A stretch of DNA of 64,000 bases from Firmicutes bacterium UBA5766. Lineage in GTDB: Bacteria; Bacillota; Desulfotomaculia; Desulfotomaculales; Nap2-2B. The notes below the pieces were generated by a model that was given only the letters and a program-made list of their open reading frames with translations, had not been told where the DNA came from and did not search any database. The position numbers and the translations under genes were made by a program. Positions 7,540 to 60,683 of the stretch are shown piece after piece (within the stretch, counting starts at the first letter, position 1; each line of letters opens with the position of its first letter). The stretch is taken from the NCBI GenBank assembly GCA_002418775.1, contig DIEU01000033.1, forward strand, positions 125-64,124, read 5' to 3'.

Positions 7540-7671
7540 ATAGTCTTTGCTTATGGGATTTCTTTTTTTAAGATAAGAGGTGAAGGCCACTGGCGATACC
7601 GGCGGCCTTCAATAAGCCTTTGGTAACGGGTCGCTAAACGATCCAAATCAAAGGGATAAAGAGGTGAAAAT

Positions 7672-9069
7672 ATGTATTTTTTCGCGCTGGCGATATTCCT
7701 GCTTACCTATGCGGTTATCATCTCTGAAAAAGTCCACCGCACAATTGCGGCTTTAATAGGCGCCGGTTTGTTTATGCTTTCAGGCGTTCTGACTATTGAA
7801 GACGCTATTGAATATATTGACTGGAACACTATCGGCCTGTTAATCGGGATGATGATTATTGTAGGTATTACACGCAACACGGGAGTCTTTGAATATCTTG
7901 CCGTAAGAGCGGCCAAGATGGTAAAAGGGAACCCCGTTAAGATCATGATGGCCTTGGCTACAGTCACGGCCGTAGCTTCCGCCCTTTTGGACAATGTAAC
8001 AACGGTCTTGTTGATTGTGCCGGTAACCTTCGCCATTGCCAGACAGTTGAAGGTCAATCCCATTCCTATTCTGGTGACTGAAATCATTTCCTCAAATATT
8101 GGCGGCACTGCCACGCTGATTGGCGACCCGCCGAATATTATGATTGGCAGCTCGACTGGACTCGGGTTTATGGATTTTGTATTCAATTTGGCGCCCATAA
8201 TAGTAGTAGTCTATGTAATTACGATTACCCTGCTTATCCCAATCTACAGGAAACACCTGGTAACAACGCCGGAACTGCAGCAGGGCATCATGAAAATGGA
8301 CGAAAAGGAAGAATTAAAAGATGTTTCTTTGCTTAAAAAGTGTTTGATCGTTCTGGGCTTGACTATTTTAGGATTTGTCATTCACCAGTACATTCACCTG
8401 GAATCATCGGTTATTGCCCTCAGCGGCGCCAGCCTGCTTTTACTTTTGTCCAGCCGTCATGACCCGGAACAGGCCCTTCATGCGGTCGAATGGCCGGTAA
8501 TTTTTTTCTTTGCCGGTTTGTTTTTGGTTGTCGGAGGTATTGAGAAGGTCGGAATCATTGAAGCTATTGCCCGCTTTGCGATTGACGTTACAAACGGAAT
8601 GATGGTTCCCGCAGGTTTGCTGATCCTGTGGGTTTCGGCAATTGCCTCGGCTTTTGTTGACAACATACCGTTCGTTGCTACAATGATACCCCTGATTAAG
8701 GATATGGGCCAACTGGGCATGTCGGGCGACTTAAACTTTTTATGGTGGTCATTGTCCCTGGGCGCCTGCCTGGGCGGCAACGGAACGATTATCGGCGCCT
8801 CGGCCAATGTAGTGGTAGTCGGGATGGCTGAAAAAAGAGGATCAACAATCACTTTTATAAGTTTTATGAAAGTAGCTTTTCCGGCAATGCTTATCTCCAT
8901 AGTCTTAAGTACTGGTTATATGCTTTTCTGGTACCATTATCACGGGTTGGTTTCCTTACTGGGCACACTGGGGTTGGGTGTTGTCCTTGCAGTAATTACA
9001 ATTCCAATAAACAACTCCTTGAGCAAAACGGCAGTTAGTGAAAAAGGATCTGTCAAGGGAAAACGATAG
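7672..9069 (+). CDS. ArsB/NhaD-superfamily ion permease, paralog 2
   Basis: 465 aa. FALAIFLLTYAVIISEKVHRTIAALIGA and LLDNVTTVLLIVPV are typical of this family. An AGAGGTG RBS is present. Confidence 0.75.
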   Translation: MYFFALAIFLLTYAVIISEKVHRTIAALIGAGLFMLSGVLTIEDAIEYIDWNTIGLLIGMMIIVGITRNTGVFEYLAVRAAKMVKGNPVKIMMALATVTAVASALLDNVTTVLLIVPVTFAIARQLKVNPIPILVTEIISSNIGGTATLIGDPPNIMIGSSTGLGFMDFVFNLAPIIVVVYVITITLLIPIYRKHLVTTPELQQGIMKMDEKEELKDVSLLKKCLIVLGLTILGFVIHQYIHLESSVIALSGASLLLLLSSRHDPEQALHAVEWPVIFFFAGLFLVVGGIEKVGIIEAIARFAIDVTNGMMVPAGLLILWVSAIASAFVDNIPFVATMIPLIKDMGQLGMSGDLNFLWWSLSLGACLGGNGTIIGASANVVVVGMAEKRGSTITFISFMKVAFPAMLISIVLSTGYMLFWYHYHGLVSLLGTLGLGVVLAVITIPINNSLSKTAVSEKGSVKGKR

Positions 9070-9168
9070 AATTCTTAACCATTGAATTAATAAAATGGTA
9101 TCGAAATACATGACCAGGCAAATAAGCGGTGTGGAAGAGCGTCAATCTTTTGCAGGCCGGCTTTTTTC

Positions 9169-9198
9169 TTGACATAAAAACGGTATTTTTTGTATAAT
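9169..9198 (+). promoter_or_regulatory. Sigma-A-type promoter for alaS
   Basis: TTGACA (9169-9174), an 18-nt spacer ending in TG, then TATAAT (9193-9198). Confidence 0.6.
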
Positions 9199-9296
9199 TG
9201 CCTCTAGAAAAGCACTTTAAGTAAAAAGAAATCAGGAAATGAAGGAAAGCCGGCAATTGCTCTTTAAGGGCCGGCTTCATGTTTGGAGGTTAATGG

Positions 9297-46956: not shown

Positions 46957-47216
46957 CTACTTCATCGCCACTTCCACACGGTAGATTACGGTGAAGTTCT
47001 TGATGAAAAGCTGACGATAGTATTTATTAGCATACACGCTTTTTTTCTTGGAGCTTCCCGCTGGGGAAGTTCCTCCAAACTGAAGATTGTTTCTTCCAGC
47101 GCGTCCAGCAGTTTTTGCGCTGTACCTGACTCCAGCAGTGTTTCGGCAATGTAGGCATAGATGCCTTCCAAATCCCGACAGGCACGGGAAAGCAATTTTA
47201 CGGCATATTTATCCAA
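46957..47216 (-). pseudogene. RelE/ParE-family toxin disrupted by a frameshift at an A7 run
   Basis: The N-terminus is MDKYAVKLLSRACRDLEGIYAYIAE ... EELPQRE. After the A7 run (47040-47046), the conserved ParE-like C-terminus YANKYYRQLFIKNFTVIYRVE continues in another frame, reachable by adding one A. Confidence 0.6.
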
Positions 47217-47472
47217 AGCGCCGCCTCCTTAATGTGGAGAGAGCTTTCCTCGCATCCAATAACTGGCTGTCAGATGCATACCCGGCCTCAGCTTCCGTGA
47301 TGGCGGCGTCAAGTTCCCGTTCTTCCAGCATGGCTTCGTAAGTTTCAATGCTCATAATTACCAGATCACCATAGCCGTTTTTTGTAATGAAAATCGGCTC
47401 TTTCTTTGCATGGCAGATGTCGGAAATTTCGTTGGTATTTCTCAAATCCGTAATCGGTCTGATCTGCGGCAT
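47209..47472 (-). CDS. Phd/YefM-family antitoxin
   Basis: MPQIRPITDLRNTNEISDICHAKKEPIFITKNGYGDLVIMSIETYE. ATG at 47472 follows GGAGG, and the gene overlaps the toxin start by 8 nt. Confidence 0.8.
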   Translation of the reverse strand: MPQIRPITDLRNTNEISDICHAKKEPIFITKNGYGDLVIMSIETYEAMLEERELDAAITEAEAGYASDSQLLDARKALSTLRRRRFG

Positions 47473-47616
47473 AACGGCGCCTCCTCTCTTGTACATAATT
47501 ATAGCATTATTACGTGCAATACACAAGACAGTATGCCCCTCTTCATTTCCCACGCCCGCGCCAGTACAATCTTAAGTCAGGTTTTTATTCTTATTATGAA
47601 CTTGCTTTATTTTTAG

Positions 47617-48531
47617 CTACTTCTTAAAAAAGTGTTTCTTGTAAAATTCAAATGTATCTTTCATTCCTTTGGTAAAGGGAGTGTACTTGAAATTTAAAGT
47701 ATTTGAAATTAATGAACCGGAGTAGAGTTCATGCTGTTCTAAAGGGAAGGGAAGGGGGATGTTTTTTTGCTCAATTTCCTCAATGGTGTATTCCCTGGTC
47801 CGGATTCTTTCGCCGCTTATTTCTTCGAATACATTGACTAATTTTTGATATGAGATCATTTCCTCTGCCGACAGGTTGTAGACATTTCCATAGACTACGC
47901 TGTTGCCCAAACAGGAAACGCATAAGTTGGCGATATCCGTAACATAAACAAACTGAAAAAGAGCAATTGAGTTTGACGGTACCGGAACTTCCTTATCGGC
48001 CAAAATAAGGTCAAAAAAATATGATTCCCTCGGGGCATAATTAAAAGGACCGTAAACGAAAGCAGGCCTTAATACTGTATAATTTATATTTTTAGTCTCA
48101 CAACTCTTAACTAACTCAAGTTCTGTAAGATACTTTTTATAACCATAATCTCCAAAAGGACCCGGAATAGGTCCTGAAAGCTTGGGCGAGTCTTCATATT
48201 TAGGGTAATCTACAGATGTTTTATAAACCGCACAGGTACTGAAATAAATATAATGGTTTATTTTACCAGGCAAATCATTAATCATACTGTTTACTTCGTG
48301 AGGAAGATCAGCGCAGAAGTCAATCACCGCATCCCAATCTAGGGAAGGGATAACCTTTTTTACCATTTCAGATTCATTCCTGTCGCAGATATGTTCTTCG
48401 ACACCCTGCATCCTTAGCGGCATGTTACCCCGGTTAAGAACGTGGATTAAATATTCTTTTCGCCTCGATAGCATTAGAGTAAAAACTCTTCCTATAAAGT
48501 AACTCCCCCCGATAATCAAAATGTTTTTCAT
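47617..48531 (-). CDS. NAD-dependent epimerase/dehydratase (SDR family)
   Basis: Rossmann motif ILIIGGSYFIGR. 304 aa. Confidence 0.75.
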   Translation of the reverse strand: MKNILIIGGSYFIGRVFTLMLSRRKEYLIHVLNRGNMPLRMQGVEEHICDRNESEMVKKVIPSLDWDAVIDFCADLPHEVNSMINDLPGKINHYIYFSTCAVYKTSVDYPKYEDSPKLSGPIPGPFGDYGYKKYLTELELVKSCETKNINYTVLRPAFVYGPFNYAPRESYFFDLILADKEVPVPSNSIALFQFVYVTDIANLCVSCLGNSVVYGNVYNLSAEEMISYQKLVNVFEEISGERIRTREYTIEEIEQKNIPLPFPLEQHELYSGSLISNTLNFKYTPFTKGMKDTFEFYKKHFFKK

Positions 48532-48738
48532 TTTATTCCCAATCCCCTTTATGAAATTTAAAGCGTATAACTTGTGCGATTCCTCAAAGATTCCGGCGTT
48601 GTTTTTGCGATAGACATTTACTTTTCACTTAATTATAATAGTTAAGAGAAAATTGCGAAAGCAAAAACAGCTTTAAATGACGAATGTTTACAAATATTTA
48701 GTCTATAGCTGGGGGGCTGGAAAACGGACAGGAGTATC

Positions 48739-50055
48739 TTGCGCGGGATACTTATCTGGTGGCTGCCGCTTAACATTGCGGCAGCGGCCTTACTGATCTT
48801 ATGGAAACCTTCAATCTGGCATTGTGCGATTGTCCTGCTCATATCCAATATTCTAACAGCAATAGGGATGGACAGGTTTGTTTACAGGCAGAAGCTTCAA
48901 GATATCATGCTGGAGAAAAGCCTTGTCGACCTCACGCTCCAGATCGCCAATGAAACTCTGCCTTTTTTAAGGCGAGGCTTAAGTGAAGAAACGGCTGCTC
49001 AAACGGCGGCTATAATAAAAGAGATCTCTCAGGTTGCGGCAGTAGCGATCACCGACAGAGAGAAAATACTTGCCTATATCGGTTCGGGAGACGATCATCA
49101 TCAAGCGGGAGGACCTATTCTTACAGAGGCCACCAAAGCCGTTTTATACAGCGGAGAGTTAAAAATATTGGATAACCCACATGATTTAAAATGTCCTTTT
49201 CCAAACTGCCCTTTAGAGTCCGCCGTAATCGCTCCCTTGAAATGCAACGGAAAAGTAACCGGGGCATTAAAACTATACCAGTCAAAACCCGGCAAAGTAC
49301 CGGAAGGAATAGTGAAACTGGCTGTCGGGCTGGCTCATTTATTTGGAATGCAGATGGAGTTGGCGGAACTGAACCGGCAGACCCAACTGGTTACCAAGGC
49401 GGAACTGGAAGCTCTTCAGGCGCAAATTAACCCTCATTTTCTGTTTAATACTTTGAATACTATTATCATGTTTATCCGGACGAATCCCGAAACTGCCAGA
49501 CGCCTGTTGATCCGGCTGGCCAGTTTTTTTCGTTATGCGCTTAAAAGAAGAGGACATTTCAACAGCCTGAAAGAAGAGATTGAGTATTTGAATACGTATC
49601 TTATTCTGGAAAAGGCGCGATTCGGTGAGAAACTGCAGATAATGAAAGATATCGACGATACTCTTTTATCCTGCGAGGTACCTGTGCTTACCATTCAACC
49701 GCTGGCCGAAAACGCAATCAAGCATGGTATATTACCCAAGTTAGGCAAAGGAACAGTTAAAATTGCCGCCAGTCTTGCAGACGGGGAAATCTTATTTGAA
49801 GTAAATGATGACGGTGTGGGAATTCAACCGGAAAGGCTGCCTGAAATTCTTAAGCCTGGCGTAGGTTCGGGAAACGGCGTCGGCCTCAGTAATGTAAACG
49901 AACGCTTGAAGAGCTTGTTTGGTGAAGATTACGGCCTAAAAATAAAAAGCGCCCCCGGAGTGGGGACATCTGTTTTTTTCCGGGTTCCACTGGATCTTAA
50001 GCATGTGGACGGGGAGGAGAATAAAAATGAAATTGAAAGCTCTGATCGTGGATGA
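48739..50055 (+). CDS. LytS/YehU-type sensor histidine kinase (two N-terminal TM helices, GAF-like region, His_kinase and HATPase domains)
   Basis: QINPHFLFNTLNTI (phospho-acceptor region), ENAIKHG (N box) and GVGLSNV (G box). Confidence 0.85.
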   Translation: MRGILIWWLPLNIAAAALLILWKPSIWHCAIVLLISNILTAIGMDRFVYRQKLQDIMLEKSLVDLTLQIANETLPFLRRGLSEETAAQTAAIIKEISQVAAVAITDREKILAYIGSGDDHHQAGGPILTEATKAVLYSGELKILDNPHDLKCPFPNCPLESAVIAPLKCNGKVTGALKLYQSKPGKVPEGIVKLAVGLAHLFGMQMELAELNRQTQLVTKAELEALQAQINPHFLFNTLNTIIMFIRTNPETARRLLIRLASFFRYALKRRGHFNSLKEEIEYLNTYLILEKARFGEKLQIMKDIDDTLLSCEVPVLTIQPLAENAIKHGILPKLGKGTVKIAASLADGEILFEVNDDGVGIQPERLPEILKPGVGSGNGVGLSNVNERLKSLFGEDYGLKIKSAPGVGTSVFFRVPLDLKHVDGEENKNEIESSDRG

Positions 50056-50827
50056 CGAGTACCCGGCTCGGCAGGAATTGCGTTTTGCTTTGAAGAACTT
50101 TGACAACATTGAAGTTATCGGCGAGGCCGCCAACGCGCAAGAAGCGCTTGTATTAATAAAAGCGCTGGATTACCAGGTTTTGTTTCTTGATATTTCCATG
50201 CCCGGAATGAGCGGTATGGAATTGGGAGCGGCGATTCAGGAACTTCCCTGCAAGCCGTTCGTTATTTTTGTTACCGCTTATGATGAATATGCCGTGAAAG
50301 CCTTTGACATCAACGCTGTCGATTATCTTTTAAAACCTGTGGAAATCAGCCGCTTAAAGAAAGCCATTGACAAAGTTCTGAAGTTGGTCGGTGATTCAGG
50401 AGCAGCAAACCTGGAAAATCAAGAAATTGAGGAAGCGGAAACGCCCGGCGGCGATAACCAGGCAGACATAAACCTTGATTTGGAGCAGATCAAAATTGAC
50501 CGTATACCTGCTGAAAAGAAAGGCAAAACAGTCCTGGTGCCTGAGTCGGATCTCGTTTTTGCCTTTACGGAAAAGGATTACGTCTACTTAAAGATCTTTG
50601 ATGAAAAACTTTTTGTAAGATTTACTTTAAAGGAACTCGAAAAACGTTTAGATCCGAAAGTGTTTTTCAGAACCCACCGGTGTTACCTGGTCAACCTGCA
50701 TAAAGTAAAAGAAATAGTCCCTTTCTTTAACGGAACATATAACCTTGTAGTGGACGATAAGGAAAAAAGCGAAGTCCCTGTAAGCCGTGCGCAGGCAAAA
50801 AAACTTAAGAGAATTATCGGGTTTTAA
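50027..50827 (+). CDS. LytR/AlgR-family response regulator (REC plus LytTR DNA-binding domain)
   Basis: MKLKALIVDDE receiver N-terminus and the LytTR motif FFRTHRCYLVNL. ATG at 50027 overlaps the kinase gene by 29 nt. Confidence 0.9.
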   Translation: MKLKALIVDDEYPARQELRFALKNFDNIEVIGEAANAQEALVLIKALDYQVLFLDISMPGMSGMELGAAIQELPCKPFVIFVTAYDEYAVKAFDINAVDYLLKPVEISRLKKAIDKVLKLVGDSGAANLENQEIEEAETPGGDNQADINLDLEQIKIDRIPAEKKGKTVLVPESDLVFAFTEKDYVYLKIFDEKLFVRFTLKELEKRLDPKVFFRTHRCYLVNLHKVKEIVPFFNGTYNLVVDDKEKSEVPVSRAQAKKLKRIIGF

Positions 50828-50845
50828 AGAAAATAAAAGGCGGGT

Positions 50846-51232
50846 TTGCCATTGGTAAAAGGAATCGGCACTGATATAATTGAAATCAAACGGCTGCGTT
50901 TGTTAGCTGAAAAATATCCTGGCAAGTTTCAAAATAAAATATTTACACAGAATGAAGTGGCTTACTGCAGTTTGCGCAAGGATCCCTTTCCGTCTTTTGC
51001 AGCCCGTTTTGCCGCCAAAGAAGCCGTTTTAAAAGCATTGGGGACAGGACTGGCTTTTGGCATAGGTTGGCGGGATGTCGAGATAGTAACAGAAAAAGAT
51101 AATGGGCCAAAAGTATCTTTGCATAATAAGGCAGTTGAAATCGCCGGAGAAAAAGGAATCAGCAAAGTAATGATCAGCATTTCCCACGATCAGGACAAAG
51201 CATTGGCATTTGCTCTGGCTTTAGGAGGCTAA
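50846..51232 (+). CDS. acpS: Holo-[acyl-carrier-protein] synthase
   Basis: GIGTDIIEIKR, FAAKEAVLKALG and ISISHD. TTG start; 50852 is also possible. Confidence 0.9.
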   Translation: MPLVKGIGTDIIEIKRLRLLAEKYPGKFQNKIFTQNEVAYCSLRKDPFPSFAARFAAKEAVLKALGTGLAFGIGWRDVEIVTEKDNGPKVSLHNKAVEIAGEKGISKVMISISHDQDKALAFALALGG

Positions 51233-51233
51233 A

Positions 51234-52787
51234 ATGAAAGTAGTCAGCGCCGCGGAAATGAGAGAACTGGATCGCACTACTATAGAAGATTATGGGATAC
51301 CCGGTGTTGTTCTGATGGAGAACGCCGGTTTCCAGGTAATCCAAGTTATCCGGGAGTTGCTTCCCGGTATAGAAAATAAGAATGTCTGCGTATTTTCAGG
51401 TAAAGGAAACAATGGCGGTGACGGTTTTGTCGTTGCCCGGCATTTGTACAACTTAAAAGCCGGTGTAAAGGTTTTTCTTTTAGCTAAAAAAGAAGAAATC
51501 TCCGGTGACGCAAAAACAAATATGTCTATCTGGGAGAATATGGGCCAAAGGATAGAAGTAATAGATCAAAATTTCCGTTTCGATGATTTGCATGCGGACC
51601 TTGCAGGAAGCGATCTCATTATAGACGCTATTTTTGGCACTGGTTTCAGAGGGATTCCGGGCCAGCCGGCCGCCGGTGTAATTGAGCAGGTTAACCGCAG
51701 CGGGAAGCCGGTAGTGGCTGTAGATATACCCTCCGGATTACAGGCGGACAGCGGCCTTATTGAAGGACTTTGCGTTAAGGCATCCTGTACAGTTACCTTC
51801 GGCCTGCCCAAGCTGGGGCTGGTCCAGGAACCTGGCGCAAGCTATACTGGAAAACTACATGTAGCAGACATTTCCATACCGGCGTTTCTTTATAATAACG
51901 AATCCTTAAAGAGACAGTTGTTAACCAGGGACTTGGTCCGCGGCTGGTTTCAGCCGCGCCGGCCCGCCTCCAACAAAGGTGATTACGGACGGGTACTTAT
52001 TGTCGCCGGGTCGAGGGGCATGACCGGCGCCGCCTGTCTGGCGGCCCTGAGCGCAGCGCGGACGGGTGCGGGACTGGTTACCCTGGCGGTTCCGTCCGGA
52101 GTGCAAAAGCTTGCCGCTTCAAAACTAACTGAAATCATGACTGTCGCTTTGCCGGAAAGTTCCGAACAGACAATCGGCAGCGGAGCTTTGGATGAAATTC
52201 TTACCCTTGCGCAGCGCTTTGATGTTATCGCAATCGGACCCGGTATCACCACACATCCCGAGACAGTTGCTTTCATAAGAAAGATTATACCCGTGTTAAA
52301 CATACCGTGTGTATTGGACGCGGATGGTTTAAATTGCCTTGCAGGTCACACGGAGGTGTTCAAACTAACGTCAGCGCCGCTTGTCTTAACCCCTCACCCG
52401 GGCGAGATGGGCAGGCTTACAGAAAATACTGCAGCGCAAATCCAGAAGCGTCGTTTAGAGATAACGGAAAAAGCGGCTAAAGACTGGGGAGTCGTTTTAT
52501 TGTTGAAGGGCGCGTCAACTATAGTCGCAGCTCCCGATTCCAGGGTTTATATCAATACAACAGGAAACCCCGGTATGGCTACAGGCGGCGCAGGCGATGT
52601 CCTTACCGGAATCATTGCCGGGTTGATCGCCCAGGGGTTAAGCCCGTTTGACGCAGCAGGAGCGGGGGCTTACCTTCACGGTTTGGCCGGTGATCTTGCG
52701 GCTGGGCAAAAAGGCTGCCGCGGTCTTGTGGCCGGTGATATTCTGGACTATTTACCGGACGCTATTTTAGAAACTGAAAGCAATTAA
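51234..52787 (+). CDS. nnr: Bifunctional NAD(P)H-hydrate repair enzyme Nnr (epimerase plus ADP-dependent dehydratase)
   Basis: YjeF_N part GKGNNGGDG and the kinase-like part GGAGDVLTG. 517 aa. Confidence 0.9.
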   Translation: MKVVSAAEMRELDRTTIEDYGIPGVVLMENAGFQVIQVIRELLPGIENKNVCVFSGKGNNGGDGFVVARHLYNLKAGVKVFLLAKKEEISGDAKTNMSIWENMGQRIEVIDQNFRFDDLHADLAGSDLIIDAIFGTGFRGIPGQPAAGVIEQVNRSGKPVVAVDIPSGLQADSGLIEGLCVKASCTVTFGLPKLGLVQEPGASYTGKLHVADISIPAFLYNNESLKRQLLTRDLVRGWFQPRRPASNKGDYGRVLIVAGSRGMTGAACLAALSAARTGAGLVTLAVPSGVQKLAASKLTEIMTVALPESSEQTIGSGALDEILTLAQRFDVIAIGPGITTHPETVAFIRKIIPVLNIPCVLDADGLNCLAGHTEVFKLTSAPLVLTPHPGEMGRLTENTAAQIQKRRLEITEKAAKDWGVVLLLKGASTIVAAPDSRVYINTTGNPGMATGGAGDVLTGIIAGLIAQGLSPFDAAGAGAYLHGLAGDLAAGQKGCRGLVAGDILDYLPDAILETESN

Positions 52788-52854
52788 CGGCAGGTGACTG
52801 ATCCTGGAAGTCCCGGTTTGGGCTGAAATAGATCTTGGCGCCATCGCGCAGAAT

Positions 52855-53934
52855 ATGCGGGAAATACGTAAAATTGTTTCCCCAAAACCGGAAATTATGG
52901 CCGTGGTAAAAGCAAACGCATATGGACACGGCGCTTTGGAGACGGCAAAAGTTGTTCTGGCTAACGGGGCAACAAGCCTGGCGGTTGCTAGGGTTGAAGA
53001 AGCAAAAGAATTAAGAAAAGCGGGGATTGACGCCCCGGTTTTACTTCTTGGGTATACACCAGGCGCCCAGTTTAAAGAGGTATTGGATTTAAATCTGATC
53101 CAGACAGTATACAACCTGGAGATGGCCGAAGCCCTAAACAGTATTGCGGAACGCTCAGGCAGGCAGGCTAAGGTTCATATTAAAATTGATACCGGCATGG
53201 GGCGTCTGGGTCTAACACCGGGGAAACCCGCCCTCGAAGATGTCCTTAAAACCGCAAGGCTTCATCATTTAAATTTAGAGGGGATTTTTACACATTTTGC
53301 TGCAGCCGACAGCGCGGATAAAACATTCGCGCTCGCGCAGCTTGAACTGTTCATTTCTTTTCTGGAAGAACTTCGCCAAGCGGGGCTGGAGTTTCCTCTC
53401 CGTCATTGCGCCAACAGCGCCGCCCTGCTTGATCTCCCGCAGACTTGTTTAAACCTGGTCAGACCTGGTATTGTCATTTACGGTTTGTATCCTTCCAACG
53501 AAATCCGGAACTCACTAAATCTAAAACCGGCCATGTCTTTTAAAACAAGAATAGCGCAAATCAAGAAAGTACCCGCAGGATTTAAAATAAGCTACGGATC
53601 GACCTACCAGACTCCACAGCCGACTGTCATCGCCGTGATTTCTGCAGGTTACGCAGACGGCTACAGCAGGCTTTTATCTTCCAGAGGAAGTGTGCTTATC
53701 AAAGGACAAAGGGCGAAAGTTGTCGGGCGTGTTTGCATGGACCAATGTATGGTTGATGTCGGGCATATCAATGATGTATCTCCCGGTGACGAAGTAGTGC
53801 TATTCGGGTCCTGCGGAGAAGAAACCATCCCTGTTGAAGAAATTGCCAAACTGACAGGAACGATCAGTTATGAAATTGTCTGTTTGGTCAACAGCCGCGT
53901 GCCGCGTTTTTATTTTAACCGAAAAGAGCAATAG
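52855..53934 (+). CDS. alr: Alanine racemase (conserved N-terminal homology continues upstream to about 52798 without an ATG/GTG/TTG)
   Basis: PLP lysine in VVKANAYGHG and the C-terminal SYEIVC. The upstream in-frame codons read LILEVPVWAEIDLGAIAQN, the usual Alr N-terminus. Confidence 0.85.
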   Translation: MREIRKIVSPKPEIMAVVKANAYGHGALETAKVVLANGATSLAVARVEEAKELRKAGIDAPVLLLGYTPGAQFKEVLDLNLIQTVYNLEMAEALNSIAERSGRQAKVHIKIDTGMGRLGLTPGKPALEDVLKTARLHHLNLEGIFTHFAAADSADKTFALAQLELFISFLEELRQAGLEFPLRHCANSAALLDLPQTCLNLVRPGIVIYGLYPSNEIRNSLNLKPAMSFKTRIAQIKKVPAGFKISYGSTYQTPQPTVIAVISAGYADGYSRLLSSRGSVLIKGQRAKVVGRVCMDQCMVDVGHINDVSPGDEVVLFGSCGEETIPVEEIAKLTGTISYEIVCLVNSRVPRFYFNRKEQ

Positions 53935-54087
53935 AAAAATTTTGGCTGCGAAAGAAGGAATTATTTGCTGAATGACGAAAACTATGGCAAGTAGATTTTA
54001 TGATAAGTAGGTTTTTAATTTTTAGAATATACGTAATGTAAATAAAAGTCCGGGTTCAGATACAAATATAGGAACTGGAAATAGACA

Positions 54088-54558
54088 ATGTCTGCAATAT
54101 TGACAAGAGAATTAACCGCTTTACTGGTACAGGCTTTGCCGGAAAGCATAGTCTTTGCAATGGTAGTATTTAGTTTTCTCTGTTTGAGATTTGATTTAAA
54201 AAAGATAGCCACAATTGCAATGCTTCAAAGTCTGACAAATTTAGTGAGTTTGTTACCCATTGCTTTTGGTGTGCATACCGTAGTTCTTGTAATTTCTCTG
54301 GCTTTTTATGTTCACTTGATGACGAAAATGCATCTGAGCAGGGTTTTCATGGCGGTATTTTTTACCTTTGTGGCTACTGGTTTAATAGAAATGATTTATT
54401 CAATGCCCCTATTAAAGATAACAGGCAGGACCTATCAAGAAGTTTTCACAAGCCCTGTACTCAGGGAAGTATATAGCATTCCCTGCCAGTTAGTTTTGCT
54501 GGCTGTAGCTCTGGGTAAAAATTATTACAACCACCAGCGGGGGAAAATTTCAGCATAA
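54088..54558 (+). CDS. Polytopic membrane protein of unknown function, upstream of agrB
   Basis: 156 aa with four or five hydrophobic segments and no soluble domain. A 15-nt gap separates it from agrB on the same strand. Confidence 0.6.
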   Translation: MSAILTRELTALLVQALPESIVFAMVVFSFLCLRFDLKKIATIAMLQSLTNLVSLLPIAFGVHTVVLVISLAFYVHLMTKMHLSRVFMAVFFTFVATGLIEMIYSMPLLKITGRTYQEVFTSPVLREVYSIPCQLVLLAVALGKNYYNHQRGKISA

Positions 54559-54573
54559 GGGAGTGCAAACTAT

Positions 54574-55200
54574 TTGTTTAAAGTCGATCTCCCCAGATCT
54601 GCGGCAGTTTTCTTAAAGGACAGGCTGGGTTTAAGCAGGGATGAAGAAGAAGTCGCTGCTTACAGCCTGGAGATGATTATCTACGGCGGCACGGGTATTC
54701 TTATGGTGTGCATCGCAGGATGGCTGCTCAAGTGTCTGACTGTTACTTTAATAGTTCTAATTGTAGGTATTTTGCTGCGCTCTTTCTCCGGCGGCGCTCA
54801 CAGCTCTTCTCCATATATTTGCATTTTAGTCAGTACAATAGTGGTTTCGATTTTAGGAAAGCTGGCCGTTATAGCAGCGCCTTATTTTTCATATTCTGCG
54901 CTGGTTCTGGTAGTTGCCGGAGGTTTTATAGTATCTTTAGCCGTGGTATGGCGGTTAGCCCCGGTGGAGTCGCCCAAAAAGCCCATTTCTTCTGAGAAAC
55001 ATAGGCGGCAATTGCGTTTACTATCAATGGTTTTTGTCTTCTTGGCGGTTTCTGTTCAGGTATCCCTTCTATTATTGAGTCCGCTTATCCATGTCACAGC
55101 GGCAATCATCCTGGCTATTGAGGCGGGACTTTTATGGCAAATCTTTTCCATGACTCAAGCAGGTCATCGTTTCGCAGTAACAATAGACAGTATATTTTAA
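54574..55200 (+). CDS. agrB: Accessory gene regulator B (AgrB) family membrane endopeptidase
   Basis: LLRSFSGGAHSSSPYICILVST has His and Cys seven residues apart, as in the catalytic pair of AgrB. It is polytopic. TTG start follows AAGGGAG. Confidence 0.8.
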   Translation: MFKVDLPRSAAVFLKDRLGLSRDEEEVAAYSLEMIIYGGTGILMVCIAGWLLKCLTVTLIVLIVGILLRSFSGGAHSSSPYICILVSTIVVSILGKLAVIAAPYFSYSALVLVVAGGFIVSLAVVWRLAPVESPKKPISSEKHRRQLRLLSMVFVFLAVSVQVSLLLLSPLIHVTAAIILAIEAGLLWQIFSMTQAGHRFAVTIDSIF

Positions 55201-55221
55201 ACGAAAGGGGGTGTAAAAATA

Positions 55222-55353
55222 ATGAAAAAGATTTCCTACTTTATCTTTTCATCCTTGTTCAGTGTTCTGGTCCTTTTGGCTGCATTTAGTGTTAAGCCTA
55301 CCTGCGCTTTTTTTTGGTATCAGCCTGAGCTGCCAAAAACCCTAAGAAAATAG
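55222..55353 (+). CDS. agrD: AgrD-like autoinducing-peptide precursor (43 aa, not in the ORF track)
   Basis: MKKISYFIFSSLFSVLVLLAAFSVKPTCAFFWYQPELPKTLRK. It has a hydrophobic leader, a single Cys followed by 4 residues (CAFFW), and a P-E-L-P-K tail. RBS AAAGGGGG is present. Confidence 0.75.
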   Translation: MKKISYFIFSSLFSVLVLLAAFSVKPTCAFFWYQPELPKTLRK

Positions 55354-55377
55354 ATGAGCTTATAAAGTGCTTATAAA

Positions 55378-55401
55378 GGGGGGAATACCCCCCACTTTTT
55401 T
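55378..55401 (+). terminator. Rho-independent terminator after agrD
   Basis: GGGGGG (55378-55383), loop AATA, CCCCCC (55388-55393), then T6. Confidence 0.8.
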
Positions 55402-55423
55402 ATGCGGAGACAGGTGACATCAA

Positions 55424-57061
55424 ATGGCGGAAAAAATACACCCGCTGGTAAATAGAAAAGAAGAGCTTGCCGAACATATCCTTGTCTCTCATATTACCAG
55501 TGTACTGGTTGTTTTTCTGGCTATTATAGCGCTGAATGTTAACTTTAAACTTGGCCAGGCGGTCACAGGCACCCTTTATTATTATGGCACAATAGTTTTA
55601 TTCTTATTGGTTGCTGTCATACCGTATTTGTCAAAAAAGTTCAGCTCAAAGCCTTGGACAGGCGAAGCCCTTTTATTGACTATTTTATTTCCCTTGATTA
55701 TGGTACTGATTTATCTGACAAAGGGCTTTGACGGTTCCAAGGTGCTTCTTTTTGTACCGGTGGTTATTGCAGCCGGCAGCTACGGTAAGCCCATAGGTGT
55801 CCTAAGCGCATTAATAGCCAGTACAGCAATCTTTGTCCTCGATATGAGACAGTTTTTTACTAATCCCGTTTCTCCTGCTTTCCAGATTGACTTAATTTAT
55901 ATGGGTATACTTGTTACTATAGCCTGGTTGATTGGTGGCCTGACGGACATTGAGAGACGCACCCATCTTCAGCTCCTCTCACTTGCCAATACTGACACCC
56001 TTACCGGATTTATCAACCACCGGCATTTTTATGAAAAGCTGACTGAAGAGTTGGAAATTGCACGGGTCAACTCTAAACCTGTATCCCTGATTATGATCGA
56101 TATAAATTACTTTAAATTTTTCAACGACATCTATGGTTATCAAAAAGGAGATCTGGTTATTGTAGAAATCGGCAGGATTCTTGAAGGCCTGATCTCGCCG
56201 CCATCTTTCGTAGCCCGTTACGGGGGAGACGAGTTTGTCTTAGTACTGCCGGGTTTAAACAGACTGGAGGCCCTGCATAAAGCAGGCGAGATTGAAGAGA
56301 CGATAAAAAATTACTCTATTGAAGGCGATCATACCCAGCCGGGGGGAAAAATAACTGTCTCTTTAGGCATGGCCTGTTTCCCCGAAGATGGAAAAAAACC
56401 AAGGGATTTGGTCAAAGCGGCAGACGACGCCTGTTACCAGTCCAAACACAGCCGCAGCCGGATCTGTTTTTCCGTCATCGACCAATTATATTCACTCAGC
56501 CAGCCGGAAAAGGATTTGTTTGATTGTTTTAAAGCGCTTTTAACAGTTATCAACGTCAAGGACAGGTATACATTTGCCCATTCGGAAAGGGTAATGGCCT
56601 ATGCTCTGGCCGTGGCTGAACGAATAGACCTGCCTGAAGAGCAGAAAACGGAACTCAGGTACGGCGCTTACCTTCATGATATAGGCAAGGTTGATATAGA
56701 TGCCGGTATCCTGAATAAAAACGGTCCTTTGCTGGATGAAGAATGGGAAATCACCAAAAAGCATCCCGTCTGGGGAAGCGATATTGTCAGGCCTTTATTG
56801 TCACTTGAGGGCCTGGTGTCGCTGGTCAGACATCATCACGAGAATTATGACGGCACCGGCTACCCTGATGGTCTAACAGGTAAAAACATTCCCCTTTCCG
56901 CCAGGATAATGCGCATCGCAGACAGTTTTGACGCGATGACAACAGACAGGCCATACCGTAAGGGCATGACACATGAAGAAGCTATTGAGGAACTTAAAAA
57001 ATATTCGGGTAAGACGTATGATCCTATATTGGTAGAAGCTTTTATAAATACAGTAAAATAA
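55424..57061 (+). CDS. Membrane-anchored GGDEF (diguanylate cyclase) plus HD-GYP (c-di-GMP phosphodiesterase) protein
   Basis: About 180 aa of multi-TM N-terminus. The GGDEF site is ARYGGDEFVLV. The HD-GYP domain carries YLHDIGK and HHENYDGTGYPDGL. Confidence 0.9.
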   Translation: MAEKIHPLVNRKEELAEHILVSHITSVLVVFLAIIALNVNFKLGQAVTGTLYYYGTIVLFLLVAVIPYLSKKFSSKPWTGEALLLTILFPLIMVLIYLTKGFDGSKVLLFVPVVIAAGSYGKPIGVLSALIASTAIFVLDMRQFFTNPVSPAFQIDLIYMGILVTIAWLIGGLTDIERRTHLQLLSLANTDTLTGFINHRHFYEKLTEELEIARVNSKPVSLIMIDINYFKFFNDIYGYQKGDLVIVEIGRILEGLISPPSFVARYGGDEFVLVLPGLNRLEALHKAGEIEETIKNYSIEGDHTQPGGKITVSLGMACFPEDGKKPRDLVKAADDACYQSKHSRSRICFSVIDQLYSLSQPEKDLFDCFKALLTVINVKDRYTFAHSERVMAYALAVAERIDLPEEQKTELRYGAYLHDIGKVDIDAGILNKNGPLLDEEWEITKKHPVWGSDIVRPLLSLEGLVSLVRHHHENYDGTGYPDGLTGKNIPLSARIMRIADSFDAMTTDRPYRKGMTHEEAIEELKKYSGKTYDPILVEAFINTVK

Positions 57062-57099
57062 AAAAGCGCGGCTTGCTTTTCTTAGGAACGTCTTCGCAG

Positions 57100-57123
57100 C
57101 CGGTTTAAAAGCCGGTATTTTTT
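57100..57123 (+). terminator. Rho-independent terminator after the GGDEF/HD-GYP gene
   Basis: CCGGTTT/AAGCCGG hairpin (57100-57115) followed by a T-run (57118-57123). Confidence 0.55.
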
Positions 57124-57172
57124 ATGTATAATATATGTTCTGATATTATATGTTCTGAGAGGAGTAATATTT

Positions 57173-57673
57173 GTGGAACGTATCTGGGCGCCGTGGAGGA
57201 CTGTTTATGTAGGCGGTAAACAGGATGAAGGCTGTATTTTTTGTGAGAAGATTCAGTCTGATCAATCCTATGATGAAAAGAACTACCTGTTACTAAGATA
57301 CGATCAAGCGTTTGCCTTGCTGAATTTATATCCGTACAGCAACGGACACATTATGGTCGCGCCTGCAAAACATATCGGAGACCTTGCCGGATTAACAGAG
57401 AATGAATTTCTCCAAATAGGCAGGGTGACAAAGTATATGGTTGAGCTGTTGAAAAAAGTCTTTAATCCCGACGGCTTTAATATAGGGGCCAACTTGGGCA
57501 AAGTAGCCGGAGCAGGCATACCCGGCCATATTCACGTCCACATAGTGCCGCGCTGGAATGGTGACACAAACTTTATGAGCGTTGTGGGGGATGTCAGGGT
57601 TATCTCCGAAGCGCTTGAAACAACATACAAAAAACTCAGCGCAGCAATGGAAGCTATCAAATTCCCAGGATAA
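57173..57673 (+). CDS. HIT-family nucleotide hydrolase/transferase
   Basis: Histidine triad GHIHVHIVPRW. The N-terminus is WAPWR ... CIFC. GTG start. Confidence 0.85.
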   Translation: MERIWAPWRTVYVGGKQDEGCIFCEKIQSDQSYDEKNYLLLRYDQAFALLNLYPYSNGHIMVAPAKHIGDLAGLTENEFLQIGRVTKYMVELLKKVFNPDGFNIGANLGKVAGAGIPGHIHVHIVPRWNGDTNFMSVVGDVRVISEALETTYKKLSAAMEAIKFPG

Positions 57674-57711
57674 AAAATGGTTGAAAAACTGACAGCTTGA
57701 GCTTGAACAGT

Positions 57712-57740
57712 CTTGTTGGAGAATTATAAAGGTGCTATAA
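57712..57740 (+). promoter_or_regulatory. Sigma-A-type promoter for the MoxR/VWA pair
   Basis: TTGTTG, a 17-nt spacer, then TATAAT, located upstream of GTG 57781. Confidence 0.45.
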
Positions 57741-57780
57741 TGTTCCAGAGCAAGATTAAGAACATCAAGGGGGATTTTTT

Positions 57781-58647
57781 GTGGACAGATCCGCTTTCGA
57801 CAGTACCGGAAGTTACCTGGTCTCAACTGACCTGCGCAATACGGTAAACATTGCTGTTGCCCTGGGAAGGCCGCTTTTAATCAAAGGTGAGCCGGGAACC
57901 GGCAAGACTATGCTGGCCAAGGCTATAGCCGAATCTTTGGGGTTTGATCTAATTATCTGGAACATTAAATCAACCACCAAAGCCCAGGAAGGGCTCTACG
58001 TTTACGACACAGTCCAGCGATTGTATGACGGTCAATTTGGCGACCATGACGTTTCAGACATAAAACAGTATATTAAACTCGGTAAGCTGGGTGAGTCTTT
58101 TGATGTAGATAAACGCGTCGTGCTTCTGATTGATGAAATTGACAAAGCAGACCTCGAGTTCCCCAATGACCTTTTATGGGAACTTGATATTATGAATTTT
58201 TATATTCCTGAAACCAAGGAAACTATTACAGCCAAACACAGGCCGATTGTGGTAATCACAAGCAACGCTGAAAAAGAACTGCCTGACGCATTTCTTAGGC
58301 GCTGTGTTTTTCATTACATTGATTTTCCTAATGAAGACATGATGCTGAAAATCATCAAGACGCATTACCCCGATATGGAAAAAACGCTGCTTGATGAAGC
58401 ATTAAACGCTTTTTACTGGATTAGAGGTATAAATGGTCTTCAGAAAAAACCCAGCACCAGCGAACTTTTAGACTGGGTTCAGGCTCTTGTAGTAGGCGGG
58501 ATAAGTTACAATCGAATCTGTTCCGACCTGCCCTTTTTAGGGGTCCTGTTAAAGAAGAATCAGGATTTTGAAGTTGTCCTCCGCCGCCTGCAGGCGGGAG
58601 GCGTTCAAAGGAAAACGTCTTCAACCGGCGCCCGCCGCGGTTATTGA
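57781..58647 (+). CDS. MoxR-like AAA+ ATPase (AAA_5 / CbbQ-NorQ-CoxD type)
   Basis: Walker A GEPGTGKT, Walker B VLLIDEIDKA, and sensor region ITSNAEKELPDAFLRRC. Confidence 0.85.
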   Translation: MDRSAFDSTGSYLVSTDLRNTVNIAVALGRPLLIKGEPGTGKTMLAKAIAESLGFDLIIWNIKSTTKAQEGLYVYDTVQRLYDGQFGDHDVSDIKQYIKLGKLGESFDVDKRVVLLIDEIDKADLEFPNDLLWELDIMNFYIPETKETITAKHRPIVVITSNAEKELPDAFLRRCVFHYIDFPNEDMMLKIIKTHYPDMEKTLLDEALNAFYWIRGINGLQKKPSTSELLDWVQALVVGGISYNRICSDLPFLGVLLKKNQDFEVVLRRLQAGGVQRKTSSTGARRGY

Positions 58648-58657
58648 GGTACAGATA

Positions 58658-59854
58658 ATGTTTACCGGACTTTTTTATACCCTGCGTGAAGAAGGAGTCC
58701 CTGTTTCCCTGACCGAATGGATGACTTTGATGGAAGCCTTACACAAAGGATTGTCCGGCGCCAGCCTGAACGGTTTCTATTACCTGGCGCGTTCGCTGCT
58801 GGTCAAAAGCGAAACGTATTTTGACCGTTTTGACCTTGCTTTTTACCGTTTTTTTCAGGATATTGAAACTTCACCGGAACTTGCTGAAAGGGTTATGAAA
58901 TGGCTTGAAAAATCGCTGCCGCCAAAGCAAGTTGATCCGAACGAGCGTAAGCCTTTCAGCCCTTGGGATTTGGAAGAACTGCGCAAAGCGCTTGAAGAAC
59001 GGTTGAACCAGCAGACGGAACAACATCATGGAGGAGGGCGCTGGATTGGAACCGGAGGCACTTCTCCTTTTGGACATTCAGGATACAACCCGGCCGGTAT
59101 ACGAATCGGGGGGGAATCAGTAAATCACTCCGCAGTAAAAGTTGCAGCCCAGAGGCGCTACCGGGATTTTCGCACAGATGATACCCTTACTACACGCCAG
59201 TTTGAAGTAGCTCTGCGCAAGTTGCGCGAACTGAGCTACAACGAAGAAGGGCCAAAGGAAGAACTTGACCTGGAAGGCACCATTGACGCTACCTGTAAAA
59301 AGGCAGGAAACCTGGAACTGGTCTGGGAAAGGCCTAGAAAAAACATTATTAAGCTTGTCCTGCTGATGGACGCCGGCGGTTCTATGCAGCCTTATTCCAG
59401 GTTGTGCAGCCAGCTTTTTAACGCCGCAAGTAAAATCAATCATTTCAAGGACACCAGATATTACTTTTTTCATAATTGTGTTTACGACCGCCTCTACCTT
59501 GATCCATACTGTATGAAGAAAAACTCTCTTTCTACAACTGAAGTTTTAAATAACCTCGGCCGTGATTACCGTTTAATCATAGTCGGGGATGCAAGTATGT
59601 CGCCCGGTGAATTGATGATGCCCGGCGGCATCCTTAGCTGGGATGATTACAACGAAGAACCGGGCATCATCTGGCTGCAGAGGCTGTTTTCTTACTTTAA
59701 ATTTTCAGTCTGGTTAAATCCTATCCCAGGCAAATACTGGCAAGCATTTTATGGCTCCGAGTCGATAAGCCTGATCAGGAGAGTTTTCCCCATGTTTGAG
59801 CTGACAGTAGACGGTTTGGAACAGGCTGTCAAAGGTCTGAAAGCTAAGATTTAA
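58658..59854 (+). CDS. VWA-domain protein (CoxE-like), partner of the MoxR ATPase
   Basis: ATG at 58658 follows GAGG. The N-terminus is MFTGLFYTLREEGVPVSLTEW and the MIDAS-like motif is LLMDAGGSM. Confidence 0.8.
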   Translation: MFTGLFYTLREEGVPVSLTEWMTLMEALHKGLSGASLNGFYYLARSLLVKSETYFDRFDLAFYRFFQDIETSPELAERVMKWLEKSLPPKQVDPNERKPFSPWDLEELRKALEERLNQQTEQHHGGGRWIGTGGTSPFGHSGYNPAGIRIGGESVNHSAVKVAAQRRYRDFRTDDTLTTRQFEVALRKLRELSYNEEGPKEELDLEGTIDATCKKAGNLELVWERPRKNIIKLVLLMDAGGSMQPYSRLCSQLFNAASKINHFKDTRYYFFHNCVYDRLYLDPYCMKKNSLSTTEVLNNLGRDYRLIIVGDASMSPGELMMPGGILSWDDYNEEPGIIWLQRLFSYFKFSVWLNPIPGKYWQAFYGSESISLIRRVFPMFELTVDGLEQAVKGLKAKI

Positions 59855-59906
59855 TCTGAAAGCTGAGATTTAAATAGAAGCAACGGGGAAATCTGGTGGA
59901 GAGTCT

Positions 59907-60683
59907 TTGGATATCGTCATTGCCGAAAATTTGCTTAAACAATACAATGGATTTACAGCAGTACGGGAAGTAAACTTTACAATCAGGGCTAAAGAGTGTT
60001 TTGGATTTTTGGGGCCCAACGGCGCCGGCAAAACATCCCTTGTTAAAATGATTTATGGGTTCTCACCGGTAACATCAGGAAAACTGACAGTCTTCGGAAT
60101 GGACGTAGAGACAAAGATCAGAGATATCAAACGGCTGCTCGGTGTTGTCCCTCAAGATAATAACCTGGATCCCGACTTGAAAGTGCTTCAGAATTTACTG
60201 GTCTATGCAAGTTATTTTGGAATTGACGTTCGTCTGGCCAGGGAAAGGGCGGAAGAACTGCTCGAATTTTTCGGCTTGAAAGAAAAAGCCGGGGAAATAG
60301 TAGAATCCCTTTCCGGCGGCATGAAAAGACGCCTGACAATTGCACGTGCGCTGATCAACAAACCAAAACTTCTAATCCTTGACGAACCGACAACAGGTCT
60401 TGATCCGCAAGCCCGCCACATGGTCTGGCAGCGCTTGCGCTTTCTTAAAGAACAGGGCGTGACCCTAATCCTAACAACTCATTACATGGAGGAAGCCAGT
60501 CAACTTTGCGACCGTTTGGTTATTATGGATTTAGGGGAAATATTGGTGGAGGGAACCCCCAAAAAATTAGTAGCCGACTATACCGCTGAAATTTCAGGCC
60601 AAATTGTTCAAGATAAAAAAGAACAGCCGGCTACATTAGAAGATGTCTTTCTCAAACTGACCGGCAGAAAACTGCAGGATTAA
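59907..60683 (+). CDS. ABC transporter ATP-binding protein (ABC-2 / DrrA-NodI type)
   Basis: Walker A GPNGAGKTS, signature LSGGMKRR, and Walker B LLILDEPT. Confidence 0.9.
   Translation: MDIVIAENLLKQYNGFTAVREVNFTIRAKECFGFLGPNGAGKTSLVKMIYGFSPVTSGKLTVFGMDVETKIRDIKRLLGVVPQDNNLDPDLKVLQNLLVYASYFGIDVRLARERAEELLEFFGLKEKAGEIVESLSGGMKRRLTIARALINKPKLLILDEPTTGLDPQARHMVWQRLRFLKEQGVTLILTTHYMEEASQLCDRLVIMDLGEILVEGTPKKLVADYTAEISGQIVQDKKEQPATLEDVFLKLTGRKLQD

Follow-up and report, generated by a model that had tools for sequence, protein, structure and literature searches.

Conserved linkage of agrBD to a membrane GGDEF/HD-GYP enzyme suggests a non-canonical peptide-signaling module in Clostridia

Introduction

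Gram-positive bacteria are understood to sense secreted peptides by one of two routes: the peptide signals through a histidine kinase to a transcription factor, or it is imported and acts on an RRNPP regulator. A 64,000-nt stretch of DNA from Firmicutes bacterium UBA5766 (contig DIEU01000033.1), analysed here at its full length and called the window, raises the question of what reads an agr-type peptide when AgrC and AgrA are missing from the locus. At 54088-57061, agrB and agrD stand between the gene for a 156-aa membrane protein, which we call mem156, and the gene for a membrane enzyme with the GGDEF and HD-GYP domains of cyclic di-GMP (c-di-GMP) turnover. Here, we show that this four-gene order is conserved across Clostridia, which makes a functional coupling between agrBD and the enzyme very likely. 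Whether the enzyme is itself the receptor does not follow from linkage, and we weigh this question against the alternatives below.

Results and discussion

A four-gene unit conserved across Clostridia

All four open reading frames (ORFs) lie on the + strand in the order mem156 (54088..54558), agrB (54574..55200), agrD (55222..55353) and the gene for the 545-aa enzyme (55424..57061), as a preliminary description of the locus had laid them out. That description had also proposed that peptide machinery and c-di-GMP enzyme are linked, a proposal that would stand or fall with the conservation of their neighborhood in other genomes. For this comparison the query was limited to the enzyme's membrane domain, a sequence without any agr information. 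The search yielded 31 species-representative genomes and 15 metagenome contigs, which gave 50 loci (numbered with an L) once pooled and stripped of redundancy. Forty of these 50 non-redundant loci are informative, having at least 1.7 kb of upstream DNA, and between 10 and 64 kb of DNA was viewed in each cassette-bearing genome. All results below derive from sequence comparison, with membrane topology inferred.

The genes mem156, agrB and agrD were found directly upstream of the domain used as query, on the same strand, in 37 of the 40 informative loci, and the protein encoded there carries GGDEF and HD-GYP domains as its output in 47 of the 50. Sorted by the genes flanking the unit, 29 loci make up at least eight unrelated classes, and L063 adds a ninth. 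By NCBI taxonomy the unit is spread over at least three orders of Clostridia, including Desulfotomaculaceae, Thermoanaerobacterales and the Moorella group; its carriers include Moorella/Neomoorella, Thermacetogenium, Syntrophaceticus, Ammonifex, Pelotomaculum, Desulfotomaculum and metagenome-assembled genomes (MAGs) of Syntrophomonadaceae. Relatives of mem156 at 42-79% identity all stand in the order mem-agrB-agrD-GGDEF/HD-GYP among differing flanking genes. The nearest relative of the window is the MAG Eubacteriales bacterium SO_2017_LW3_34, with approximately 80-87% identity per cassette protein. The three exceptions among the 40 loci are L047, in which the cassette sits downstream of a kinase version of the membrane-domain protein, and L031 and L041, to which we return when weighing the proposed mechanism.

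Could the adjacency be a coincidence? The sole argument for it is the prior expectation that GGDEF genes are common in Clostridia. We consider that it has virtually no chance of being right and regard it as refuted, because the exact four-gene order recurs in 37 of 40 loci across at least nine flanking contexts and at least three orders. The co-occurrence proposed in the preliminary description is thus borne out, and the conserved gene order supports the functional coupling that it had suggested.

AgrB, a hypervariable AgrD ring and a hairpin before the enzyme gene

The agrB gene starts with TTG behind an AAGGGAG ribosome-binding site (RBS) and encodes a 208-aa predicted AgrD-processing membrane endopeptidase/cyclase. 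It matches the AgrB family PF04647 at 121.8 bits against a cut-off of 23 bits, over profile positions 10-184 of 185. The catalytic His/Cys spacing is present as GGAHSSSPYIC in the window and, under the strict pattern GGAH-x6-C, in 39 of 43 cassette AgrBs. An Ammonifex MAG has a second agrB (L033 4409-5035) ahead of its mem-agrB-agrD-enzyme unit.

The 43-aa AgrD scores 39.6 bits against the TIGR04223 cut-off of 19 bits and reads as a hydrophobic leader, KPT, the predicted ring CAFFW and the tail YQPELPKTLRK. With this, the profile searches proposed in the preliminary description have recovered all the named families, AgrD through TIGR04223. The leader and the tail QPE[VL]P-x-[AS]L[RK]K are kept across orthologues and the ring is hypervariable, with 40 different 5-mers among 44 orthologues. 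A variable ring between a constant leader and tail is the pattern expected of agr specificity groups. Two AgrDs, at L040 6789-6917 and L056 2150-2293 (ASAS-TVIW-YQPQVP), have Ser in place of the ring Cys and would be lactone-type rather than thiolactone peptides; the enzyme beside them reads RLGHDEF.

A G+C-rich stem-loop followed by a T-run, GGGGGGAATACCCCCC, was picked up by a terminator scan on the + strand at 55378..55401 and is a candidate leaky terminator or attenuator. The preliminary description had placed a strong terminator 22 nt ahead of the enzyme gene, and the distance from the hairpin to the ATG is indeed 22 nt, RBS included. A promoter would not fit between hairpin and enzyme gene in the window, so that expression of the enzyme must depend on read-through. 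The arrangement is widespread: of 41 non-identical loci, 37 have a stem-loop of -10 kcal/mol or below behind agrD (median about -24 kcal/mol), with a lineage-specific sequence. Such an arrangement would favor an excess of precursor transcript.

No AgrC/AgrA pair accompanies the cassette

We searched for a canonical receptor by tblastn with an AgrC-type kinase module; neither the 64-kb window nor the cassette loci gave a match, and the locus itself holds no kinase of the AgrC (HPK10) type and no cognate AgrA. The agrBD pair had been described as orphan on first reading, and for the window the kinase search agrees.

The sole LytTR regulator of the window (50003-50827, PF04397 at 87 bits) lies approximately 3.3 kb upstream of the cassette. 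It is paired with a LytS-type kinase, as had been noted. The kinase combines a GAF domain, a His_kinase domain of the PF06580 (LytS/YehU) type and HATPase_c, and has few transmembrane (TM) segments; the two genes overlap by approximately 50 nt and together occupy 48739-50827. The pair had been put forward as a possible classical output of the peptide, and one could go further and take it as the cognate receptor pair, with the c-di-GMP enzyme unrelated. A LytTR regulator paired with a same-strand kinase is what one would look for in that case. However, the kinase is of the PF06580 type and not of the AgrC HPK10 type, and the AgrC-type search found nothing in the window. The pair is moreover limited to the closest relatives (L001, L002, L013 and L049) with none in other cassette loci, and three housekeeping genes, ACPS, YjeF and Alr, lie between it and the cassette. 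The pair is 95-96% identical between the window and L001, against 78-85% for the cassette. No kinase/regulator pair near the cassette is conserved among cassette loci. The pair is therefore not a conserved partner of the unit, and by this comparative evidence it serves a function unrelated to the cassette; we find its role as the receptor hardly credible.

The conserved output is that of a phosphodiesterase

In the window, the HD-GYP domain (56543..57025, + strand) matches PF13487 (HD_5) at 132 bits and carries HDIGK and HHENYDGTGYP, so that it is intact as first described. The motifs hold throughout the family: HD[IL]GK is found in 43 of 43 orthologues and HHEN[YFW][DN]G[ST]GYP in 42 of 42, and HSERV, DSFDAMT and RPY[RKQ] are nearly invariant. 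The GGDEF domain (55985..56455, + strand) matches PF00990 at 136.3 bits, reads RYGGDEF and has the Asn and Asp residues that bind guanine. The preliminary description was right that this site is intact in the window; as a family trait it does not stand, since no more than 13 of 43 orthologues keep GG[DE]EF, the others reading GSDEF, GDDEF, GNDEF, GHDEF or GRDEF. The guanine-binding Asp is invariant (43/43). The position of the RxxD I-site is occupied by SPPS in the window, and RxxD is not among the commonest variants there in the 43 orthologues.

What the family conserves as output, with HD-GYP motifs invariant and GG[DE]EF kept by 13 of 43 orthologues, is therefore a phosphodiesterase. Cyclase activity, to judge from these motifs, is not a conserved property of the enzyme family, and the GGDEF domain probably still binds nucleotide where catalysis is lost. 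The window enzyme, with its intact GGDEF, may be bifunctional. As for the substrate, the closest solved HD-GYP structures are V-cGAP3 (5Z7C, E 4.6e-38) and then PmGH (4MCW, E 4.1e-33). The linked GGDEF domain is of the canonical GTP type and not of the Hypr type, and because of this we favor c-di-GMP as the likely substrate of the HD-GYP domain.

Several lineages have a further gene with a canonical GGDEF motif (RFGGDEF, RIGGDEF or RFGGEEF) immediately ahead of the cassette (L023 2650-4686, L024 3098-5530, L027 3005-5521, L033 3161-4036, L040 76-1788 and L031 3-1970). The cassette's own GG motif is degenerate in six of the seven loci with an extra GGDEF-type neighbor, an enrichment that is not significant against a baseline of 70%. 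Such loci hint at a stand-alone cyclase working alongside a phosphodiesterase under peptide control.

The membrane domain of the enzyme is shared with kinases beside agrBD

The N-terminal part of the enzyme (55424..55969, + strand) is a predicted sensor-type membrane domain. The multi-TM N-terminus of roughly 180 aa that had been described is recovered as five to six TM segments by hydropathy and as six helices in a single-sequence AlphaFold2 (AF2) model, which we used for the helix count only (predicted local distance difference test, pLDDT, 55.6). The window domain falls short of the cut-offs of two known sensor families, DUF4118 (19.6 against 28.4 bits) and 6TM_PilS (13.8 against 27 bits). 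Weak matches to DUF4118 occur in 8 of 33 members of the six-TM family (best E 1.2e-6) and to 6TM_PilS in 4 of 33 (best E 3.9e-6), suggesting at most a distant relatedness. Searches of PDB sequences with the family profiles of mem156 and of the six-TM domain returned nothing. Nor did a word-indexed protein search match the six-TM domain, whether given as a single sequence or as a 33-sequence alignment; this search missed even an 81%-identical orthologue, and we read it as a failure of the index on hydrophobic sequence rather than as absence.

The genomic context of the domain is more telling. The full-length six-TM domain also fronts PAS-HisKA-HATPase kinases in L046 (E 2.7e-21) and L047 (E 3.8e-16), and both kinase genes adjoin the peptide genes, directly after agrD in L046 and directly before mem-agrBD in L047. 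One input domain with swappable outputs beside agrBD is, as these gene arrangements present it, typical of a dedicated sensor module. Within the domain, variability peaks in the predicted outward loop 1 and TM2, which parallels the hypervariable ring of AgrD.

These observations bear on an explanation in which the coupling is transcriptional only. The enzyme would then be an effector encoded on the agr operon, whose membrane domain senses some other cue or none at all; an unlinked kinase/regulator would detect the peptide and autoinduce the operon, and c-di-GMP would change only through the amount of enzyme. The genes do share a strand, with a read-through hairpin and no separate promoter for the enzyme, and unlinked receptors of agrBD are known in clostridia (VirS/VirR in C. 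perfringens); AgrCA could also be encoded elsewhere in these genomes. A mere effector, however, would hardly have its membrane domain on histidine kinases beside agrBD, nor would one expect that domain to be almost confined to agrBD neighborhoods (one solo gene in 40 informative loci) and hypervariable, like the peptide, in its exofacial region. The lack of a conserved kinase/regulator pair near the cassette points the same way, and we judge a purely transcriptional coupling decidedly improbable.

We suggest instead that the six-TM domain is a previously unrecognised receptor module for agr cyclic peptides, acting with a mem156-family protein and carrying either a c-di-GMP enzyme or a PAS-histidine kinase as its fused output. 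This is a tentative proposal, to which we give somewhat less than an even chance.

mem156, a possible input-type domain found upstream of agrB

mem156 is a 156-aa membrane protein with five TM segments by hydropathy and five long helices in its AF2 model (pLDDT 84.6). A scan of the family gave no Pfam or NCBIfam match, and a Foldseek comparison of the model with the PDB gave a best E of 4.2, thus no match, including none to a solved AgrC membrane domain. An exhaustive profile search gathered 773 clusters at 50% identity, almost all of them stand-alone proteins of approximately 155 aa, and members lie directly upstream of agrB in every locus examined. An alignment of mem156 with the six-TM domain by hhalign gave a probability of 1.6%, indicating that the two are unrelated.

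Two family members (P0115 and P0068) have the mem156 domain fused to a kinase with HATPase_c_5, encoded by a gene that overlaps agrB. Residues 7-146 of P0115 match the mem156 profile (E 5.0e-15, and 3.4e-18 in a second search), and the best PDB matches of its kinase module are S. aureus AgrC 4BXI and 6E52. The preliminary description had called the protein of the window a kinase-less membrane protein, a label that stands, given that the same domain is the N-terminus of AgrC-type kinases beside agrB elsewhere. From this fusion we argue that mem156 is an input-type domain, homologous to the membrane domain of the P0115 kinase.

An input domain could bind the peptide itself. In such a split receptor, mem156 would be the peptide-binding part and, through contact within the membrane, would hand the signal on to the six-TM domain as a mere transducer. 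Intramembrane-sensing kinases that rely on accessory membrane proteins offer a parallel. Besides the fusions in P0115 and P0068, this would account for the absence of a six-TM partner gene near the fused form, when every stand-alone mem locus examined has one. Among 12 syntenic proteins, mem156 has also diverged furthest between the window and L001 (78% identity against 84-96%), a pair whose rings differ, although divergence is otherwise roughly even domain by domain, without an agr-style hypervariable block, and mem156 stands out in this closest pair only. Finally, mem, AgrB and the TM domain show covariation over and above that with the cytoplasmic domain, which could reflect evolutionary rates shared by membrane proteins. 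Against mem156 as the peptide-binding part, its predicted outward loop LPIAFG is the most conserved segment (0.81) and is kept family-wide whatever the ring, which fits a conserved task better than ring-specific recognition and is unlike a specificity determinant. A comparison of the mem profile with the S. aureus AgrC sensor also gave no similarity (-19 bits), a result to be taken as a lead only. We regard the split receptor as rather improbable.

Alternatively, mem156 could be a biosynthetic accessory of AgrB, serving in leader removal, export or scaffolding, with the six-TM enzyme alone as receptor. MroQ, a membrane protease that acts on AgrD in S. aureus, offers a model for such a role. 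The position of mem156 directly upstream of agrB, often with overlapping genes, fits this role, as does P0096, a single called protein that runs from the mem domain into AgrB. The conserved outward loop and the conserved polar residues PE, R, G-x-H and P, in or near the membrane across the 773 clusters, would also suit it, as would frequent tandem duplication. An analogous case may be C. perfringens, in which two hypothetical ORFs upstream are co-transcribed with agrBD and only a construct including them complemented an agrB mutant (PMC2706048); these ORFs, CPE1563 and CPE1562, recall the one or two mem genes upstream of agrB in our loci. On the other side, the fusion to AgrC-type kinases with conserved motifs retained argues for an input or sensor role, the model has no fold match in the PDB, and no protease family matches mem156, the similarities seen being non-significant (Rce1-like, E 0.095 in one member; SpoIIGA, E 0.007 in one). 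A purely accessory mem156 is in our view unlikely, if still a serious contender.

We favor a division of labor in which the six-TM domain is the specificity-determining sensor and mem156 its conserved partner, as a co-receptor or as an AgrB accessory.

Tandem duplications of mem156-type genes upstream of agrB were seen in L009, L012, L023, L026, L039, L040 and L046 (L010 and L048 are duplicates); the pair in L039 is perhaps one gene split by a frameshift. A further arrangement, agrC-agrB-agrD, was seen at 6001-8170 of L044/L045. Its kinase has a mem156-like N-terminus, no LytTR regulator lies within 6 kb, and its AgrD reads ...GVQPACPIFFYQPEVPEHLRDN.

A proposed mechanism and the evidence that weighs against it

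We propose that the unit is a non-canonical agr-type module in which a membrane cyclic-dinucleotide enzyme replaces AgrC and AgrA, the peptide being sensed by the six-TM domain, probably together with mem156, so as to modulate the HD-GYP domain. We hold this proposal, taken as a whole, evenly balanced between right and wrong. As its family membership suggests, AgrB would process AgrD to a hydrophobic five-residue (thio)lactone peptide for export. Judging by the anatomy of the operon, the stem-loop after agrD would let agrD transcripts outnumber the read-through transcripts that encode the enzyme. The six-TM domain, probably with mem156, would pick up the extracellular peptide in the membrane, and the signal would travel along a continuous TM6-linker helix to alter HD-GYP activity, so that c-di-GMP would shift with cell density. 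Where GG[DE]EF is intact, as in the window, the GGDEF domain may serve as a second catalytic domain; elsewhere it is probably a GTP-binding regulatory or dimerisation domain.

Several observations weigh against this mechanism. The kinase-output examples of the six-TM domain are two only, and the labels given to outward loops derive from hydropathy, charge and a low-confidence model. We compared AgrD ring distances with those of mem156, AgrB and the TM domain in a partial Mantel test controlled for the cytoplasmic domain and found no covariation (r about -0.1 to 0); the ring is saturated, so that this comparison has no power. Among solved HD-GYP proteins the closest, 5Z7C, is a 3'3'-cyclic GMP-AMP (3'3'-cGAMP) phosphodiesterase and 4MCW a c-di-GMP phosphodiesterase, which leaves the substrate uncertain. 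An AgrCA pair could be encoded elsewhere in the cassette genomes, of which 10-64 kb each was viewed. Finally, two loci depart from the unit. L031 (6160-8650) holds a decaying cassette that has lost agrB from between mem156 and agrD and carries a frameshift in the enzyme gene. In L041 (6986-8644), from a MAG labeled Deltaproteobacteria, a six-TM-GGEEF-HD-GYP gene stands alone, the 7 kb upstream of it containing neither mem156 nor agrBD; this gene could be an eavesdropping receptor or a binning artefact, or its agrBD could be located elsewhere.

Relation to known systems

The locus has much in common with agrBDCA of S. aureus: an AgrB with the His/Cys spacing, an AgrD with leader, Cys+4 ring and charged tail, a ring that varies between lineages, and a polytopic membrane protein in the same unit as candidate receptor. 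It differs in having no AgrC or AgrA, in an output made of GGDEF and HD-GYP domains instead of phosphotransfer to a LytTR factor, and in its order mem-B-D-enzyme with an extra 156-aa membrane protein. Nor was an RNAIII-like element seen, although no search was aimed at one.

Two other signaling traditions provide precedents for the output. In Xanthomonas, the diffusible signal factor (DSF)/Rpf system runs from the RpfC kinase to RpfG, a REC-HD-GYP protein, and the quorum signal lowers c-di-GMP. Binding of DSF by RpfC is reported in PMC5391125. Both there and in the proposed module a quorum-sensing signal would act through an HD-GYP phosphodiesterase; the DSF system, however, uses a fatty-acid signal in Gram-negative hosts and phosphotransfer to a soluble REC-HD-GYP protein, whereas here the HD-GYP domain sits on a membrane protein without REC. 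In Burkholderia RpfR (PAS-GGDEF-EAL), which responds to the Burkholderia DSF (BDSF), and in the dCache diguanylate cyclases that bind autoinducer 2 (AI-2), the autoinducer receptor is itself a c-di-GMP enzyme. These are proteobacterial proteins that read small molecules through a soluble PAS or a periplasmic dCache domain, in contrast to the ribosomal cyclic peptide and the six-TM bundle that we propose for Gram-positive anaerobes.

In Caulobacter PdeA (CC3396), a degenerate GGDEF domain acts as a GTP sensor for the linked phosphodiesterase. The family described here likewise has degenerate motifs with nucleotide-binding residues kept (G[SDNHR]DEF in 30 of 43, guanine-binding Asp invariant). 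The partner is HD-GYP here and EAL there, and the window's own GGDEF is intact. As to the input, the six-TM domain shares with DUF4118 (KdpD type) and 6TM_PilS sensors a sub-threshold similarity and very short loops suggesting intramembrane sensing, and it has a small partner membrane protein as in PilS-PilA, BceS-BceAB and LiaS-LiaF. It differs from these in having a non-kinase output in 47 of 50 loci, and mem156 is unrelated to PilA, BceB or LiaF.

If the proposal is right, it adds to the kinase and RRNPP routes a third one, from peptide to second messenger, through agr machinery hard-wired to a membrane c-di-GMP phosphodiesterase. In the GGDEF/HD-GYP version, a cyclic-dinucleotide enzyme would then for the first time be the direct reader of a peptide autoinducer. 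The module would tie density sensing to c-di-GMP behavior in acetogens and in syntrophs that oxidise acetate and propionate (Moorella, Thermacetogenium, Syntrophaceticus, Pelotomaculum). Aggregation, motility and biofilm formation are typically under c-di-GMP control in these organisms, which depend on cell-cell proximity in anaerobic digesters. The six-TM domain and the 773-cluster mem156 family are two candidate receptor families for the orphan agrBD systems of clostridia, and would, if the proposal holds, be the missing receptors of loci without agrCA. The cultured carriers Moorella mulderi DSM 14980, Neomoorella stamsii DSM 26217 and Syntrophaceticus schinkii Sp3 make the hypothesis testable.

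Such orphan loci, with agrBD and no adjacent agrCA, include CPE1563-CPE1560 of C. perfringens and agr1 of C. difficile; the pathway downstream of C. difficile AgrD1 has been described as unknown (PMC11210211). The unit described here differs from them in that it always encodes a signaling protein, and is hence not really orphan. The preliminary description knew of no coupling between agr peptides and c-di-GMP, and we likewise found no description of an agrBD plus GGDEF/HD-GYP architecture in full-text searches of the literature; the agr survey of Wuster and Babu (2008) lies outside that coverage, and a prior mention there is possible.

Other features of the window and an atypical record

A consensus scan placed a candidate operon promoter, ATGATA-17-TAGAAT, at 54000..54028 on the + strand; with 9 of 12 positions matching, this is weak evidence. 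The TAGAAT block and its flanking blocks are kept between the window and L001. Counts of 8-mers upstream of mem156 in 36 loci revealed no shared promoter or operator motif, only RBS-like or A-rich words and fragments of flanking genes. No riboswitch, for c-di-GMP or otherwise, was found near the operon: the interval 47000-60000 has no Rfam match at E<=1 save one spurious lncRNA (long non-coding RNA).

The unit is closed by a terminator-like hairpin with a T-run at 57099..57125 (+ strand, consensus scan). The next gene downstream, a HIT gene (57173-57673), has its own promoter-like site at 57104-57132. Past it, at 57781-59854, lies a pair of genes for a MoxR-like AAA ATPase and a VWA/CoxE-type protein, 93-94% identical in L001.

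Searches of plasmids returned a single record with the same cassette, L067 (NZ_CP061968.1, 'Klebsiella pneumoniae LZK001 plasmid unnamed3'), in which it lies at 6800-10010 with the ring CFTWF and a TM domain split by a frameshift. The record is 27 kb long, unannotated and of 58% GC, and is almost certainly a Firmicute contig wrongly assigned to Klebsiella.

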